NCBI GenBank assembly: GCA_000004695.1
Contig: CM000154.2
Location: forward strand, 928,001-992,000
Source of the DNA: Dictyostelium discoideum
Taxonomy: Eukaryota
Direction of reading: 5' to 3'
Length of the DNA stretch: 64,000 bases
A model generated the notes under the pieces. The model was not told the origin of the DNA and made no database searches. It saw only the letters and a program-made list of their open reading frames with translations. The translations under genes were made by a program, and so were the position numbers. This document shows positions 5,627 through 14,047 of this stretch, in pieces (positions within the stretch are counted from its first letter, which is position 1; each line of letters begins with the position of its first letter).

Positions 5627-6580
5627 TTGTTTACATTTCTTTCTTTATTTTTTAAAATTTTAAAAAAAATGGAAAATAAAATTGTTTGCTCAAACTATCC
5701 AGAATTAAAATGTTTAGCCTTAGAGTCAGTCCAAAAACATTTAGTACACCAAAATTGTAAACAAGCAGCCAATAACTCAATCTCTCACCAGTATCCACAT
5801 AATCATTTAAATTCTCATTCTTTCTCTCATTGTCATACTTATGGAAAAAATGAAAATGATCTCCAATCTGCCAATAATGACTGTTCCTCATCATCATCAT
5901 CATCATCGTCATTATTATCGAGACAATCGGTTATTTCCTCCTCCTCTCAACAACAACAACAACAACAACCACCGCCACCACAATTGGACTATGATATTTC
6001 TAAATTGTTCTTATCATTTGATGACTTTAACTGTGTATTAAACTATTGGCAATATCGTTTCAATCATATTGATTTGGTTGTTGGTATTGAACCAAGTGGG
6101 TTGGTTTTGGGTAGTGTTTTCTCTCAACGTCTTAGATTACCCTTTTTAATGCTTAAGAAAAGGTCATCAACAAATTCATCTCTCTCCTCTTCTGATGGTG
6201 CCACTACAAATACAACTTTATTGAGAGAAGAAATTGGAAGTGATGATGAAGAATTAGAAGTTGAACAAGAAATTCTCTCCACTTTATTCCCATCAATCAA
6301 AGATTCTACCAGTGGTTTTCCATTCAAAAATAATGAACTCTTGGATTCAAATGGTGAGAAAAAGAAATTCCAAATTTTAATTATGGATGATCTCTTGGAA
6401 AATGGTACATGTTTAGCCGCTGCCATTGAGTTATTAAAGAAGCTTTTAAAACAAAGTAAAATTAAAGATTTTAAAATTTCTTCCACTTTCATAAGTAGTA
6501 TTAAATCATTAGGTGGTAAAGAAAAAATTTATGAAATGTATAATGATATCTCTGTTGATGTTATTAATATTATTGAATAA
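5627..6580 (+). CDS. Type I phosphoribosyltransferase (PRTase)-domain protein with a Ser/Gln-rich N-terminal extension. The probable true start is the ATG at 5669 (MENKIVC...).
   Basis: DLVVGIEPSGLVLGSVFSQRLRLPFLMLKKR resembles the APRT-like VxGxExRGF region. ILIMDDLLENGTC matches the PRPP-binding VVDDLLATGGT loop. The low-complexity S/Q tract is typical of Dictyostelium. Confidence 0.55.
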   Translation: MFTFLSLFFKILKKMENKIVCSNYPELKCLALESVQKHLVHQNCKQAANNSISHQYPHNHLNSHSFSHCHTYGKNENDLQSANNDCSSSSSSSSSLLSRQSVISSSSQQQQQQQPPPPQLDYDISKLFLSFDDFNCVLNYWQYRFNHIDLVVGIEPSGLVLGSVFSQRLRLPFLMLKKRSSTNSSLSSSDGATTNTTLLREEIGSDDEELEVEQEILSTLFPSIKDSTSGFPFKNNELLDSNGEKKKFQILIMDDLLENGTCLAAAIELLKKLLKQSKIKDFKISSTFISSIKSLGGKEKIYEMYNDISVDVINIIE

Positions 6581-6831: not shown

Positions 6832-8181
6832 ATGACAATATGGTTAAATAATGATGAAATGAAAAATATGATGAACAATAGACAAAACATCAGAAATATT
6901 GGAATAATTGGACGGTAAATTTCCGTATATCATTCTCAACTCTACTTTAAATATAAAATAATCCTAATAACTAAAATAAAATTTAAAAAAAATAGAGTAG
7001 ATACTGGCATTAGAACACTTATTGATATACTATCAATATCAAATTTTATTAATATTAAAAGAGGTGATGTTGGAGTAGATAAAGATTTTAAAGAAGATCT
7101 TTTCAATAAAACAAATATTCCACTTTTTTTTGAACAAAATAATAATAATAATACTATTAATAATAATAAATTTTTAATTAATGTTATTTTACCAAGAAAT
7201 CAAATTGGAATTCAAAATCAAATTTCAACATTTCATTTAATTGATGGTTTATTAGTTGTAGTTGATTGTATTGAATCAAGTCTTCCACAAGAGAAAACTA
7301 TTTATCAATCAATTGGTGAAAGGGTTAAACCAATTTTATTTTTAAATAAATTTGATCGTTTCATTTTAGAACTTAAATTAGATAGTAGTGGAATTTATAA
7401 TTCATTACAAAGAAGTATTGAAAGATTCAATTCAATTGCAACTTGTCAAAAAGATGATTTATTAGGTGACGTTGAAGTTTCACCTGAAAATGGTACTGTT
7501 GGATTTGGTTCATCATTATATGGTTGGGCATTTAATTTATCAACATTCGCAAGATTATACTCTTTGAAATTTGGTATATCTGAACAATCTTTGGTTAAAA
7601 ATCTATGGGGTGAAAATTACTATGATCTATCATCAAAGAAATTCTCTAAACTTTCAATTAGTTCTGATGGTAAACCATTGAAACATTCTTTCATACAATT
7701 TATTTTAGAACCAATCATTCGATTAACAACAGCCATAATGGATAACAAAAAAGAAGAAATCAATAAAATGTTAACATCATTGGGAATCTCATTAAATAAT
7801 GAAGAGAAAAAATTAAAAAATTTACAACTTTACAAAGTGATGATGGTTAAATTCACCCACCCAATCTCAGAATTCCTACTTTCAAGTGTAGTAAAACTTT
7901 TACCATCACCAGTTGAAGCACAAAGATATAGAGTCGATAATTTATATGATGGTCCGTTGGATGATGAATGTGCAACAGCAATTAGAAATTGTGATCCAAA
8001 TGGACCATTAATGATTTACATTTCATCTATGATTGCAACTAAAAAACCCAACTTACCATATTTAGCATTTGGACGTATATTTTCAGGTTCTATTCAACCT
8101 GGTAAAAAAGTTAGAATTATTTGTAATACAGATTATTGTGGTAAAATTAATTTCAATCAAAATAATAATTATAATGATATA

Positions 8182-8226
<45 letters not shown>

Positions 8227-9482
8227 TCATATAGAGATAAAACTATTAAAGAATTATTTTTATTAGAGGGTGCAATGTTAGGACCAACAATTAATAATTG
8301 TGCATGTGGAAATATTATTAGTATTTTAGGTTTAGAAAAATATATTGTTAAAACTGGAACGATTACAGATTCTGATTTAGCACATAATATTTTTAGTTTT
8401 AAATATTCAAATACATCAGTTGTTAGTGTAGCCATTCAACCTATACAACCTCTCGATCTACCTAAATTAATTGAAGCCTTAAAAAGATTGGTTCAAATTG
8501 ATTCCACTGCATATTTTACTAATGAAGAAACTGGTGAATTGTTACTTTCTGGCTCTGATGAAAATCATTTAGAAAGTTTAGTTGGTGAATTAAGAAATTC
8601 AATTGAAAAAATTAAGGTTTCCCAGCCGATTGTATCTTTCAAAGAAACTGTTACAAATGAATCATCAATTAATGGTTTTCAAAATCATCAAATAAACTCA
8701 CTAGAATGTTTTCAAGTGCAAGACCAATCAGTGAACAACTATTGTATGATATTGAAAATGGTATGATTTCATCAACATGTGACCCATTAGAAAATGAAAA
8801 ACTTTTAAAGAAACATCATGGATGGAATATTTCAGAAGCAAAGAAAATTTGGACATTTGGGTCAACTTCACAATTGGTGGAATCAAATTTATTAGTTGAT
8901 TCCACCAAAGGTGTTCAATATATAAGTGATATTAAAGATCCAGTGGTTTGTGCATTTCTTTGGGCAACTAAACATGGAATACTTTGTGATGAGCCATTGA
9001 GAGGTGTTCGATTCGATATTAACGATGTATTATTATCAGGTGATTCTATTAGAAGAGGTAGTGGTCAAATTATTCCAATGACTCGTCGTTGTTTATATGC
9101 ATCTCAATTAAGTGCATCTCCAACACTTCAAGAACCAATCTTTATGATTGATATTAATGCCTCTGATAAAATGCATGAAAAAGTACTTTCAATTCTAAAT
9201 AAACGTGGTGCAAAACTATGGAGTGAATCAAAATCATTAAATGATACATTCAATATTAAAGCTCACATACCAGTTTTAAAATCATTTGGATTATCTCAAG
9301 AACTTAATTTTAGTACCCTTGGAAATCATCCAATCTCTACTCATTTCGTATTTGACCACTGGAAATCAATGGGTACAGTTTGTGAAGATAAATTTGTAAC
9401 TGAAACAGTTTTAGAAATTAGAAAAAGAAAAGGTTTAAATCCTGAAATTCCATCATTAGAAGATTATATGGATAAACTTTAA
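6832..9482 (+). CDS. Elongation factor 2 (EF2)-like paralog with degenerate GTPase motifs; possible pseudogene. Exon 1 is 6832..6914, the intron is 6915..6995, exon 2 runs 6996 to about 8670 in frame 1, and the reading continues in another frame from about 8673 to the stop at 9480-9482.
   Basis: Collinear with EF2 along its whole length. MTIWLNNDEMKNMMNNRQNIRNIGIIGR|VDTGIRTL aligns with [46 protein letters not shown]...HLIDGLLVVVDC aligns with FLINLIDSPGH...TDGALVVVDC. The protein also has LFLNKFDR (NKxD), YRVDNLYDGPLDDECATAIRNCDPNGPLMIYISSM and a C-terminus ...RGSGQIIPMTRRCLYASQL...VFDHW...IRKRKGLNPEIPSLEDYMDKL. The P-loop GKS is replaced by GIR and the switch-II DSPGH by LPRNQ. Reading changes from frame 1 (TVTNESSIN) to frame 3 (WFSKSSNKLTRMFSSARP, cf. 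EF2 LSKSPNKHNRLYMKARPF) within attaatggtttt at about 8668-8678, consistent with one missing base. Confidence 0.6.
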
Positions 9483-9491
9483 AGTGTAAAA

Positions 9492-9655
<164 letters not shown>

Positions 9656-9711: not shown

Positions 9712-10860
9712 TTATTGTTGTTGTAGTTGTTGTTGTAGTTGTTGTTCTTCTTCATTTTTAGTTCTCTTTTTATAATCATCATATTTACCAAGTAAAGTTA
9801 TGAAAATTTCCATTGCAATTAAAAAAATAATAATTCTTTCTAAACGAATTGAATGATTATGTTTTTGTTCATCATTGATAACTTCATAAATATTTGTAAT
9901 TAAATTAATTTTTTCATTCATTACTCTAATACGTTTATTGATTTCACAATGAGATCTAATTGAATTGTAGATACTTTCACCCTCTGGATTCTCCCAAAAA
10001 TATTCTGGTGTATCATTGATATCAGATAAATTCAATTCAGATTTAAGTCTTAATTGTTCACCTAATTGACGAAGAATTTCAAGTTTTGAAAATTTTGAGA
10101 TTTGACCAGTGATTGAAATATCTTCAGCGGTTTCTGATAAATGTTGAACTCTATCTTCGAATGGGAATAAACTAATCGATTGTGCAAATGCATATGATGA
10201 TGAGAATTTCTCAAGATCTTGATCTCTTTCCGATTTTGAAAGATATATAATCTCCTCTGGTTTTTTATTAATATCAAATGATTGATTGGATGCTGTTGAT
10301 ATTCTAAACTTGTATCTATCTACATGTCTAGTTGGCCATGATTTTAGCTCATATGCTTTTAACCAATCTAAAACTTGATCTAATGATTCCTCACCAACAC
10401 CCCACGATACTATACTGCCAAATGATGGGAATACAAATACTGAATTACCAGTATCTTGTTCAACTAACCATCTTGCATTACCAGTACTTGAATCAAAAAC
10501 TTTTTGAAGTGAAAATCCTTTTGGTAAATTTTCAATTGATTTACTATAACTTCTTGATGTATAAATAACTTTACAAATTTGAATTTCATTATTACCATTA
10601 ACAATACCACCACCACTATTATTATTATTATTATTATTAATCTCTTTTTTTTCTTTAATTTGTTGTTTATTATTATTACCACCATTATTACTTGAAGCAT
10701 AAAATCTATTAATTCTATTAAAATTTTCATTATTACTACCACTATTTAAAAATATTGGTGATATGAAATTATTTGAAAAATTCGGTTTTGATGTTAATAA
10801 TCCACTTTTTAATGTTGGATTATTTATAACATTTTTAAATTTTATTAATCTATTAATCAT
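9712..10860 (-). CDS. RMND1/Rmd1-Sif2 (DUF155)-like protein, probably mitochondrial (382 aa)
   Basis: N-terminus MINRLIKFKNVINNPTLKSG resembles a mitochondrial presequence. The core region NSVFVFPSFGSIVSWGVGEESLDQVLDWLKAYE resembles the DUF155 (V/F)FxYGxxVxWG block. There is a C-terminal hydrophobic helix IIFLIAMEIFITLLG. A poly-Asn insertion is present. Confidence 0.5.
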   Translation of the reverse strand: MINRLIKFKNVINNPTLKSGLLTSKPNFSNNFISPIFLNSGSNNENFNRINRFYASSNNGGNNNKQQIKEKKEINNNNNNNSGGGIVNGNNEIQICKVIYTSRSYSKSIENLPKGFSLQKVFDSSTGNARWLVEQDTGNSVFVFPSFGSIVSWGVGEESLDQVLDWLKAYELKSWPTRHVDRYKFRISTASNQSFDINKKPEEIIYLSKSERDQDLEKFSSSYAFAQSISLFPFEDRVQHLSETAEDISITGQISKFSKLEILRQLGEQLRLKSELNLSDINDTPEYFWENPEGESIYNSIRSHCEINKRIRVMNEKINLITNIYEVINDEQKHNHSIRLERIIIFLIAMEIFITLLGKYDDYKKRTKNEEEQQLQQQLQQQ

Positions 10861-12485: not shown

Positions 12486-13061
12486 AACTTGTTGTGATGC
12501 TTCTTGGCCTATAGGTAAACCATATTCATCAACACTTGATTGATGTGGATCAGTAGTTGGAACTGATGGTGTCATTAAATAAGAAGGCATTGAGGCTTCC
12601 AATTCTAATTCTTCACCCATTGACATTAATTCAGCCTCCAACTCTGATTCATCTAAAGTATCTGGAGTTTGATAAGCTCTACCTAATGATTCTTGAATTT
12701 CATTGTTATAATCTAATAAATCTTGCATTTCATCTTGCATATCGTCTACATCTTCAATTTTTATATGTTTTAATTGTGTTTTCATGTCTTTGGCACCCTG
12801 TTTCATTGCTGAAACTGTTGTAATTGTATCTCTCATTGACTCTGTGGCAAACTTGGTTTGCTCCATATTAAATGATGTACTTGCCATTTGGTCTCTTTGT
12901 CTTTCATACATTTTCTTTTGTTGTAATACTCTAATTGCTTTTTGTTTAATTGCATTCTGTGCTGGACCTGGTCTAGTTGCTTTTATTTGTTTATCATATG
13001 CTAATAATTCTTGATTTAATCCATTTATTTTTTCATCCATTTGTCCCATCCTTCCACCAAT
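12480..13061 (-). CDS. Vps60/CHMP5 (Snf7-family ESCRT-III-associated protein), exon 2 of 2
   Basis: QIKATRPGPAQNAIKQKAIRVLQQKKMYERQRDQMASTSFNMEQTKFATESMRDTITTVSAMKQGAKDMK aligns closely with human CHMP5 ([44 protein letters not shown]...). Acceptor ...aaaaag precedes ATTGGTGGAAGGATG. Confidence 0.85.
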
Positions 13062-13149
13062 CTTTTTTATTTTTAAAAAAAAAAAAATTAAAATTAATAA
13101 AAAAAAAAAAAAAATTAATATAAATTATATTTTAAAACTATAAAGTTTA

Positions 13150-13185
<36 letters not shown>

Positions 13186-13199
13186 TTTAATTTACATAC

Positions 13200-13265
13200 T
13201 CTTTTTGTTGCCTCATCTAAAGTTGGGGCTGGTTGGTTGTTTGAAACACCAAAAAATCTTTTCAT
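13200..13265 (-). CDS. Vps60/CHMP5, exon 1 of 2 (MKRFFGVSNNQPAPTLDEATKR)
   Basis: ATG at 13265. The 22 codons match the CHMP5 N-terminus [22 protein letters not shown], followed by a GTATGT donor. Intron 13062..13199 is phase 0. Confidence 0.75.
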
Positions 13266-13613
13266 TTCTTTTTTTTTTTTTTTTTTTCTAATATGAATGT
13301 ATTATTTTTTTTATTTTCATTTTTTTTTTTTTTTAATATTCCTTTTTTTTTTTTTTAAAAAAAAATATCTTTATATGTTTGTTTTAACCTTTATCTCTAT
13401 AAACTCTTTTTAGAAATAAAATAATAATAAAAAAACAAATAATATGAGAATATCTTTTTTGTGTGGCAGTGTAAATTAAAAATTAATAAAATAAAAAAAA
13501 AATAAAAAAAAAAAAAAAAAATTTATAAAAAAAAAAATAAAAAATAAAAAAAAAATAAAAAAAAAAATAATTTTTATTTTTTTAGGCTGTTAATAAAAAT
13601 CTGAAAAATCGAG

Positions 13614-13645
<32 letters not shown>

Positions 13646-14009
13646 AAATTGGGGTTTGCATTGTTTGTAAATTTTAAAAAAGGGAAAAAAGTTTATTTAT
13701 TAATTTTATTTATTTATAAATTAATTTTTTTATTTATAAATTAATTAATTTATTAATTTTTTTATTAATTAATTTATTTATTTATTAATTAATTAATTAA
13801 TTTATTAATTTATTAATAAATTATCTCATTATTTTTTTTTTTAACTGCAAATTTGGGTTGGGCAGTTTTCAAATTTATGAGGTTGGGTAAAAAAAAAAAA
13901 AAAAAAAAAAGGTTTCCGGTATTCCAAAATCCATTTTTTAAAAAAAAACCCCAATAAAAAAATTGGGAAATTAATTTAAAAAAAAAAGGGGTTAGTTTTT
14001 CCCTGGGCC

Positions 14010-14047
<38 letters not shown>

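Follow-up and report, generated by a model that had tools for sequence, protein, structure and literature searches.

A probable pseudo-GTPase derived from elongation factor 2 in Dictyostelium discoideum, with a frameshift in the AX4 lineage

The stretch of DNA considered here, referred to as the window, comprises 64,000 nucleotides of chromosome 5 of Dictyostelium discoideum AX4 (contig CM000154.2, positions 928,001 to 992,000). It contains a gene derived from eukaryotic elongation factor 2 (eEF2) at positions 6832-9482, for which the label EF2L is used. The motifs by which elongation factor 2 (EF2) handles its nucleotide are destroyed in EF2L, and in AX4 the reading frame is interrupted by a deletion of one nucleotide. 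It is likely that EF2L is a pseudo-GTPase that arose through an old duplication of the eEF2 gene efbA, was maintained by selection as an inert mimic of EF2, and was knocked out or truncated only recently in AX4.

The EF2 architecture of the gene is complete. Pfam detects GTP_EFTU (E = 4.6e-10), EFG_III, EFG_IV (1.7e-18) and EFG_C, along with a weak match to domain 2, and these matches and an end-to-end alignment with eEF2 place the G domain and domains II, III, IV and V in EF2 order. The best non-self database matches are canonical eEF2s, with 41-44% identity across 99% of the length. The collinearity with EF2 from start to stop, including domains IV and V, which an original prediction made from the DNA sequence alone had proposed, is thereby confirmed. 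The same prediction had drawn a parallel to Ria1/EFL1 and Snu114, which is sound as an analogy but not as kinship. In a phmmer search of the PDB, EF2L scores about 630 bits with eEF2 (E = 1e-190), about 380 with Snu114 and 253 with EFL1. Apart from this analogy, the idea that EF2L is the Dictyostelium ortholog of Snu114/EFTUD2 or EFL1/Ria1 can draw on a weak Pfam EFL1 match on record for a Tieghemostelium lacteum relative. It is contradicted by the PDB scores, by the end-to-end alignment with eEF2, which includes neither an N-terminal acidic extension nor a large EFL1-type insertion, and by an intron common to EF2L and efbA, and is as good as out of the question. Taken singly, the Snu114/EFTUD2 identity was rejected because EF2L starts level with eEF2, without the acidic N-terminal extension of about 100 amino acids, and because of the lower score. 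The EFL1/Ria1 identity was rejected because the match is partial and EF2L has 848-875 amino acids versus about 1100 for EFL1. Judged by its sequence, EF2L is a member of the eEF2 clade and neither a Snu114 nor an EFL1.

The motifs were compared in an alignment of EF2L with the eEF2s of D. purpureum, Acanthamoeba, Entamoeba and fungi. The relevant elements are as follows:

6910..7017 (+, spanning the intron): degenerate G1 motif (P-loop) GRVDTGIRT, with Lys changed to Ile and Ser/Thr to Arg in the alignment with eEF2s
7093..7113 (+): switch-I remnant EDLFNKT (canonical RGITIKS), with a deletion of 7 amino acids upstream and low AlphaFold2 confidence (predicted local distance difference test, pLDDT, <50)
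7189..7203 (+): degenerate G3 motif (switch II) LPRNQ (canonical DSPGH), from the eEF2 alignment and the count of conserved columns
7345..7356 (+): retained G4 motif NKFD, from the eEF2 alignment
9033..9077 (+): domain IV tip LSGDSIRRGSGQIIP, with the diphthamide His changed to Arg and the His before it to Ser

In G1, the canonical AHVDHGK(S/T)T is replaced by GRVDTGIRT, so that the P-loop pattern GxxxxGK[ST] is no longer matched. GRVDTGIRT is identical in all four haplotypes compared, namely AX4 and the loci L001, L002 and L004, which are termed divergent haplotypes here. In G3, the replacement of DSPGH by LPRNQ removes the Asp, the Gly and also the His, which is the catalytic residue in canonical EF2. 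Both substitutions had been read correctly from the sequence, GKS/T as GIR within VDTGIRT and DSPGH as LPRNQ, and the canonical GKS and DxxG are still missing once the alignment is corrected. The guanine-specificity motif NKxD is kept, as had also been stated, in the form NKFD. Three changes go beyond what had been noticed: the switch-I deletion of 7 residues, the conversion of RGITIKS to EDLFNKT next to it, and the loss of the diphthamide acceptor. At the domain IV tip, the canonical LHTDAIHRGGGQ has become LSGDSIRRGSGQ, and the diphthamide-acceptor His (AIHRGGGQ) is an Arg. The tip reads SIRRGSGQ in AX4, L001 and L002 and YFRRGGQ in L004. A further conserved segment, GSGLHGW, is GSSLYGW in EF2L. 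Across 36 canonical eEF2s, 312 columns reach a conservation of 95% or more, and EF2L deviates in 124 of them (40%). Deviations affect 53% of such columns in the G domain, 21% in domain IV and 16% in the G'' subdomain.

The fold is nevertheless predicted to persist. The AlphaFold2 model of EF2L has a mean pLDDT of 69.4, the P-loop and both switches falling below 50, and a Foldseek search with this model returns eEF2 structures as top matches, with template modelling (TM) scores of up to 0.76 to yeast eEF2. On the evidence of sequence and predicted fold, EF2L combines the loss of G1 and/or G3 residues with a kept fold, by which a pseudoGTPase is defined. From established GTPase biochemistry, we infer that productive binding of Mg-GTP, activation by the sarcin-ricin loop and translocation would all be lost. 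An intact EF2L would thus be expected neither to bind nor to hydrolyse GTP, nor to act as a translocase.

Intact syntenic open reading frames (ORFs) of EF2L with the same dead motifs are found in the three divergent haplotypes. L001 and L002 are the loci of the proteins P0001 (848 aa) and P0124 (849 aa), which were deposited as D. discoideum and show about 96% identity to the AX4 product once this is repaired. At L004, which was deposited as D. cf. discoideum, the intact gene has 875 codons. All three loci share their surroundings with the window, a PRTase gene lying upstream and a DUF155 gene downstream. Since the dead G1 and G3 motifs are common to all haplotypes, the pseudo-GTPase state must long predate the frameshift of AX4. 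The lesion and its consequences map to the following positions:

8674..8681 (+): frameshift site GGTTTTCA, from the DNA alignment of the haplotypes, identical in a second assembly (L003)
8764..8766 (+): premature TGA of the upstream frame, giving a predicted AX4 product of 617 aa without domains IV and V
8731..8810 (+): probably artificial 80-nt GT..AG "intron" starting with GTGAAC, from an 829-aa model annotated on L003

Aligned at the DNA level, the site reads GGTTTTTCA in L004, GGCTTTTCA in L001 and L002, and GGTTTTCA in AX4, which is one base short of the GG(T/C)TTTTCA of the three other haplotypes at 8674-8681. Most parsimoniously, one T has been lost from a run of five (T5). P0001 and P0124 read through the site as ...SSINGFSKSPNKLTRMF..., and the ancestral reading is ...SSING FSKS(P/S)NK.... 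A single base added to the AX4 gene yields one ORF of 857 codons with no further lesion. As it stands, the frame shifts at codon 589, and 588 native residues are followed by an out-of-frame tail of 29 residues, 617 in total. The upstream frame stops at the TGA, and the remaining EF2 homology lies in the downstream frame. The original prediction had placed a 1-nt slip near 8668-8678; the frameshift itself is real, but it lies in the T-run after GG. Accordingly, the break falls within ING|FSK instead of between IN and WF, and the base that restores the frame is a fifth T (or C) after GG and not an extra base giving AATTGG.

The same prediction had left the choice between a recent inactivating frameshift and an assembly error. 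A one-nucleotide change in a short T-run is a typical class of error, and the frameshift is the sole lesion in the gene, both of which would fit a mistake in the AX4 reference with an intact gene in the strain. In the second assembly, L003 (GCA_054883475.1), all 2651 nt of EF2L agree with the window, the run of four T (T4) included. Over 20.9 kb, nearly all differences between L003 and the window concern the lengths of homopolymers or fall into a single disordered intergenic patch, the nearest homopolymer difference lying 238 nt upstream of the EF2L ATG. Such differences imply that L003 is an independent re-sequencing of the same laboratory lineage and not a copy of the reference, and an identical frameshift in an independent assembly implies a real deletion. 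A run of four or five T is also short for Sanger or long-read errors. With the three other haplotypes intact, the frameshift is best regarded as recent, and a sequencing or assembly error is highly improbable. The intergenic patch itself (window 13639-14017) shows dozens of clustered mismatches to L003, mostly G/A in the window against T in L003, and is either a low-quality stretch in one of the assemblies or a hypervariable AT-rich repeat.

The annotation of L003 lists an EF2L product of 829 aa. The sole GT-AG solution that reaches this length adds an 80-nt intron at 8731-8810, which removes conserved EF2 sequence that is coding in the intact haplotypes. This intron is probably a gene-model artefact, and with it the 829-aa model on the re-assembled genome. 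In an exact look-up in the protein collection, the C-terminal ORF of 258 aa, an ORF of 400 aa, the 617-aa product and the 829-aa model were all absent. The AX4 allele would be either a null allele or one encoding a truncated fragment from the G domain to domain III.

In principle, AX4 ribosomes could still produce full-length EF2L by slipping back one nucleotide (−1) on the U-run. A −1 slip of tRNA-Phe in the P-site on GGU_UUU_C would re-pair perfectly and regenerate the ancestral ...INGFSKS... exactly. The site reads U_GGU_UUU and offers no X_XXY_YYZ heptamer, however, and the downstream 100 nt fold less stably than shuffled controls (z = +1.24). It also arose recently by deletion, and the sister haplotypes are in frame without any slippage. 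With only four U's, slippage should seldom occur, and such an origin of full-length EF2L in AX4 is extremely doubtful. Programmed −1 frameshifting was likewise rejected as a candidate: there is neither a heptamer nor a stimulatory structure, and the relatives carry an in-frame gene.

Selection on the gene was assessed from Nei-Gojobori counts on codon alignments, with binomial p values against neutrality. The ratio of nonsynonymous to synonymous divergence (omega, dN/dS) is 0.43 between AX4 and L001 and 0.37 between AX4 and L002, at a synonymous divergence (dS) of about 0.05 in both cases, and 0.38-0.47 between any haplotype and L004 (dS 0.08-0.10). Over the whole tree of four haplotypes, 59 synonymous and 95 nonsynonymous changes give an omega of 0.42 (p = 6e-7). 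Three neighbouring single-exon genes have omega values of 0.08-0.14 at the same dS as in the comparisons of AX4 with L001 and L002. By domain, the values are:

G domain: omega 0.26, p = 1e-4
G'': omega 0.33, p = 0.02
Domain II: omega 0.47, p = 0.046
Domain III: omega 0.34, p = 0.035
Domain IV: omega 0.65, not significant against neutrality
Domain V: omega 0.67, not significant against neutrality

These counts indicate that EF2L is under purifying selection, albeit weak, and that the catalytically dead G domain is, if anything, its best-constrained part. They also bear on the possibility that EF2L is a neutrally decaying pseudogene in all strains, its dead motifs being mere decay. The destruction of all catalytic motifs, the frameshift in AX4, an omega 3-5 times that of the neighbouring genes and a very low codon bias would suit such a gene. 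ORFs of 848-875 codons that have stayed intact in three haplotypes despite only about 43% identity to eEF2 would not, nor would an overall omega of 0.42 with the strongest constraint in the dead G domain, nor an intact relative in D. purpureum. Neutral decay in all strains is very unlikely on this evidence. The alternative of a pseudo-GTPase or a decaying pseudogene, as first formulated, is accordingly settled in favour of the former, since the intact ORFs and the value of p = 6e-7 are at odds with decay of the gene as such.

With L004 as the outgroup, the AX4 branch carries 9 synonymous and 15 nonsynonymous changes (omega 0.44) and the L001/L002 branch 15 and 17 (omega 0.30), which is no difference (Fisher p = 0.59). 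As the AX4 branch shows no added relaxation, its lesion must be recent. The domain values further raise the question of whether the AX4 allele is really null, or whether the 617-aa product with G, G'', II and III keeps a function. By point estimate, the lost domains IV and V are the least constrained in recent evolution (0.65-0.67), whereas G, G'' and III are the most constrained (0.26-0.34). In addition, the sole intron is 5' and none follows the premature stop, so that mRNA decay dependent on an exon junction would not be expected to apply. Yet the counts per domain are small, and the contrast between G and IV plus V is one of point estimates. Domain IV is the second-best conserved part when EF2L is compared with canonical eEF2, and the product would carry the 29-aa out-of-frame tail. 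A functional 617-aa product thus appears unlikely.

The haplotypes themselves deserve a remark. L001 and L002 differ from AX4 by a dS of about 0.05 in all genes of the locus, and the "cf. discoideum" assembly by about 0.08-0.10. A mean within-species diversity of 0.003 has been given in a 2025 preprint, which describes nanopore assemblies of nine strains, two suspected cryptic species among them (bioRxiv 10.1101/2025.10.22.684067). L001, L002 and L004 are probably cryptic sister lineages and not ordinary conspecific strains. In L002 (GCA_054859385.1), the DUF155 gene at 12738-13830 spans 1093 nt, a length not divisible by 3, and is annotated with 355 aa versus 379-382 elsewhere. The anomaly may stem from an indel in the assembly or from a genuine lesion, and this gene was left out of the dN/dS controls.

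Codon usage sets EF2L apart from efbA. The GC content at third codon positions (GC3) is 0.12 in EF2L versus 0.28 in efbA, and codons ending in C are rarer, with 0.3 versus 0.85 for TTC and 0.06 versus 0.53 for AAC. From this, EF2L would appear to be weakly expressed.

The structure of the gene points to its origin:

6832-9482 (+): EF2L gene, two exons, collinear with eEF2
6832..6914 (+): exon 1, beginning with ATG at 6832 and covering codons 1-27 and 2 nt of codon 28; GTAAAT comes next at 6915
6915..6995 (+): intron of 81 nt, GTAAAT...ATAG, phase 2, in the codon preceding VD(T/H)G; splicing restores the EF2 alignment
6996..9482 (+): exon 2, broken by the 1-nt deletion; TAA stop at 9480-9482

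The intron at 6915..6995 is, by the alignment, the only genuine intron of EF2L. The single intron of D. purpureum efbA interrupts, in phase 2, the codon for the His of AH|VDHGK, and the EF2L intron is of the same phase and lies in the Arg codon aligned to this His codon. A common intron position and phase indicate that EF2L is a duplicate of efbA at the DNA level and not a retrocopy.

To find relatives, 1.84 billion cluster representatives were searched exhaustively with HMMER, and names were looked up. The named relatives found are DICPUDRAFT_89525 of D. purpureum (P0129), KYR02430 of T. lacteum (P0134) and KAL7712479 of Entamoeba marina (P0131), and many EF2-like proteins without a name, in which G1 and G3 are degenerate, also came out of the HMMER search. 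Neighbour-joining (NJ) trees with Kimura correction were built for sets of 33 and 65 sequences. EF2L groups with DICPUDRAFT_89525 with bootstrap values of 93% (33 sequences) and 90% (65 sequences), and the T. lacteum protein joins this clade at 96% and 49%, respectively. The Entamoeba paralog groups with Entamoeba eEF2 (95%, 33 sequences), which indicates an independent origin. The deep placement of the paralog clade in these trees shows long-branch effects. At 24 columns uniquely derived in canonical D. purpureum eEF2, the paralogs show the ancestral residue in 5-11 cases and the derived one in 0-2, which argues for an old and not a species-specific duplication. DICPUDRAFT_89525 is the probable ortholog of EF2L in D. 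purpureum. EF2L is, as far as these comparisons go, not unique to D. discoideum but has relatives elsewhere in Dictyostelia. Shared synteny was not detected: the paralogs of D. purpureum (L006) and T. lacteum (L007) have other neighbours, and a tblastx comparison of these loci with the window matches EF2L alone.

Some further observations concern these relatives. The second annotated intron of DICPUDRAFT_89525 (L006 10190-10273, GL871234.1) is 84 nt long, in frame and free of stops, and would encode ...SINTPESEETKKPIEIKKSKLLPLLYNI..., which can be aligned to eEF2 in the switch-I/beta-strand region. The segment is probably coding, and the deposited protein of 832 aa may lack 28 residues. A second divergent EF2 paralog of D. 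purpureum, P0176, has 821 aa (L008 2001-4538, GL871211.1), with near-canonical G1 (GQINNGKTS) and G3 (DTPGH) and a scrambled domain IV tip (YKNQVPIVRGGYSF). The P-loop and/or switch II are destroyed in P0131, P0133, P0135, P0136, P0138, P0144, P0145, P0147, P0148 and P0153, EF2-like proteins that come from genomes and from environmental assemblies. EF2 copies with a dead GTPase may be a recurrent and as yet undescribed phenomenon in microbial eukaryotes.

In the proposed course of events, EF2L would go back to an old duplication, at the DNA level, of efbA, the eEF2 gene of dictyostelids. The copy would then have shed the Lys and Ser/Thr of the P-loop, the effector segment of switch I, the whole DxxGH of switch II and the diphthamide His, while keeping its five-domain architecture. 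The intact protein would most likely be a nucleotide-independent EF2 mimic of low abundance, which may dock on the factor-binding site of the ribosome or on an EF2-binding protein. In the AX4 lineage, the loss of one T from the T5 run would have truncated it after domain III. AX4 as a natural knockout or truncation, set against intact related isolates, offers a ready-made genetic contrast for finding the function.

Several points weigh against this reading. An omega of 0.42 is weak constraint, and domains IV and V, the would-be contacts with the decoding centre, are not significantly below neutrality. The codon usage speaks against a stoichiometric partner of the ribosome, and AX4 is viable in the laboratory despite the loss, so that EF2L is dispensable under these conditions. 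The lesion is known from one laboratory lineage alone, to which both AX4 and L003 belong. The orthology with the dictyostelid paralogs rests on long-branch NJ trees without synteny, and at columns invariant in eEF2, EF2L shares 20-29% of derived residues with them and 14-34% with unrelated long-branch paralogs. Finally, GKST and the diphthamide His are still present in the D. purpureum relative, as is the P-loop in the T. lacteum one, from which it follows that the family is not uniformly nucleotide-independent.

A more specific role can be imagined, in which EF2L and its dictyostelid relatives serve as EF2 decoys or plugs that bind EF2-targeting agents or the ribosomal site of EF2. Bacterial ADP-ribosylating toxins, which recognise domain IV and diphthamide, are one candidate target, and dictyostelid amoebae feed on toxin-producing bacteria. 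Idle ribosomes in dormancy are another candidate; eEF2 is bound to hibernating 80S particles according to the titles of PDB entries. A gene of conflict or defence would fit the fast evolution, the elevated omega of domain IV and the lost ADP-ribose acceptor His, as well as the recurrent independent origins in other amoebae and the presence/absence variation between strains. Even so, a decoy function is quite unlikely to be the correct description.

The neighbours and the repeats of the locus complete the description:

5669-6580 (+): upstream neighbour ORF, exactly DDB_G0287985 of AX4
9712-10860 (−): downstream neighbour ORF, exactly DDB_G0287989 of AX4
8149..8229 (+): Asn-rich insertion in domain II, with a 54-nt length indel between strains

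From the numbering between its two neighbours, we infer that DDB_G0287987 is the identifier of EF2L. No second EF2-like sequence is present in the window. EF2L and DDB_G0287989 converge, and most of the short spacer between their stops (9482 and 9712, respectively) consists of an (AAT)n microsatellite that is perfect over about 120 nt (9492-9611). The alignment to the other haplotypes breaks in this spacer. Within the gene, tracts of Asn codons (7157; 8148-8201) vary in length among the window, L001, L002 and L004, always in frame, with differences of 27-30 nt and 54 nt. One tract adjoins the switch-I remnant and the other lies in domain II. In L004, EF2L contains a run of about 40 Asn residues.

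A literature search found neither a description of an eEF2-derived protein without a P-loop nor one of this dictyostelid group, nothing specific on EF2 pseudogenes or paralogs in Dictyostelium or on pseudoGTPases of the EF2 type, and no mention of DDB_G0287987 or of the accessions of the new assemblies. Compared with canonical eEF2 (efbA; yeast EFT1/2, PDB 1N0U/1N0V), EF2L is similar in its five domains, in NKxD and in much of G'' and domain IV, but differs in G1, switch I, switch II and the diphthamide His. Its rate of evolution is also far higher, and its choice of codons is of the kind seen in weakly expressed genes. EF2L would thus represent an eEF2 copy that has neither the nucleotide-handling apparatus nor the diphthamide site and is yet retained by selection.

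Its closest relative outside the D. discoideum complex, DICPUDRAFT_89525 (XP_003291740, UniProt F0ZWF0), is an uncharacterised protein named "Tr-type G domain-containing protein". It shares with EF2L the position and phase of the intron as well as a degenerate switch-I region and G3 (DTPSH), but has kept GKST and the diphthamide His, has about 43% identity and lacks synteny. KYR02430 of T. lacteum (A0A152A865), automatically named "elongation factor 2", resembles EF2L in its switch II, DIPRN, with the same PRN, and in the Arg in place of the diphthamide His (AIRRGGGQ). Unlike EF2L, it has an intact P-loop, AHVDHGKST, and an intronless gene. In KAL7712479 of Entamoeba marina, the P-loop (SLSNDVNNS) and switch II (NLTNIF) are destroyed as in EF2L, although the origin is independent. 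Independent dead-motif copies of this kind, in Entamoeba and in many environmental eukaryotes, suggest a recurrent and undescribed use of an inert EF2 scaffold.

Translational-GTPase folds that work without catalysis are familiar from yeast Ski7 (Hbs1/eRF3 family) and Tsr1, which serve as scaffolds that bind ribosomes or complexes. Unlike EF2L, their parent families are EF1A-like or other, and not EF2. Among archaea, aEF-2p lacks the conserved residues of the domain IV loop, including the diphthamide site, and is unlikely to be a translocase; it is described as belonging to the superfamily of translational GTPases, and a loss of the P-loop is not reported (Narrowe et al. 2018, PMC6143161). In contrast to EF2L, aEF-2p is archaeal and stems from independent duplications. 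In the cytoplasm and nucleus of eukaryotes, the EF2 family has been held to comprise only eEF2, Ria1/EFL1 and Snu114 (Atkinson 2015, PMC4342817). Snu114/EFTUD2 and EFL1/Ria1 are, like EF2L, EF2 duplicates in roles other than translocation, but they are ancient and pan-eukaryotic. Both retain their GTPase motifs. On the sequence comparisons presented here, EF2L is a third, lineage-restricted kind of EF2-derived paralog beside Snu114 and EFL1.

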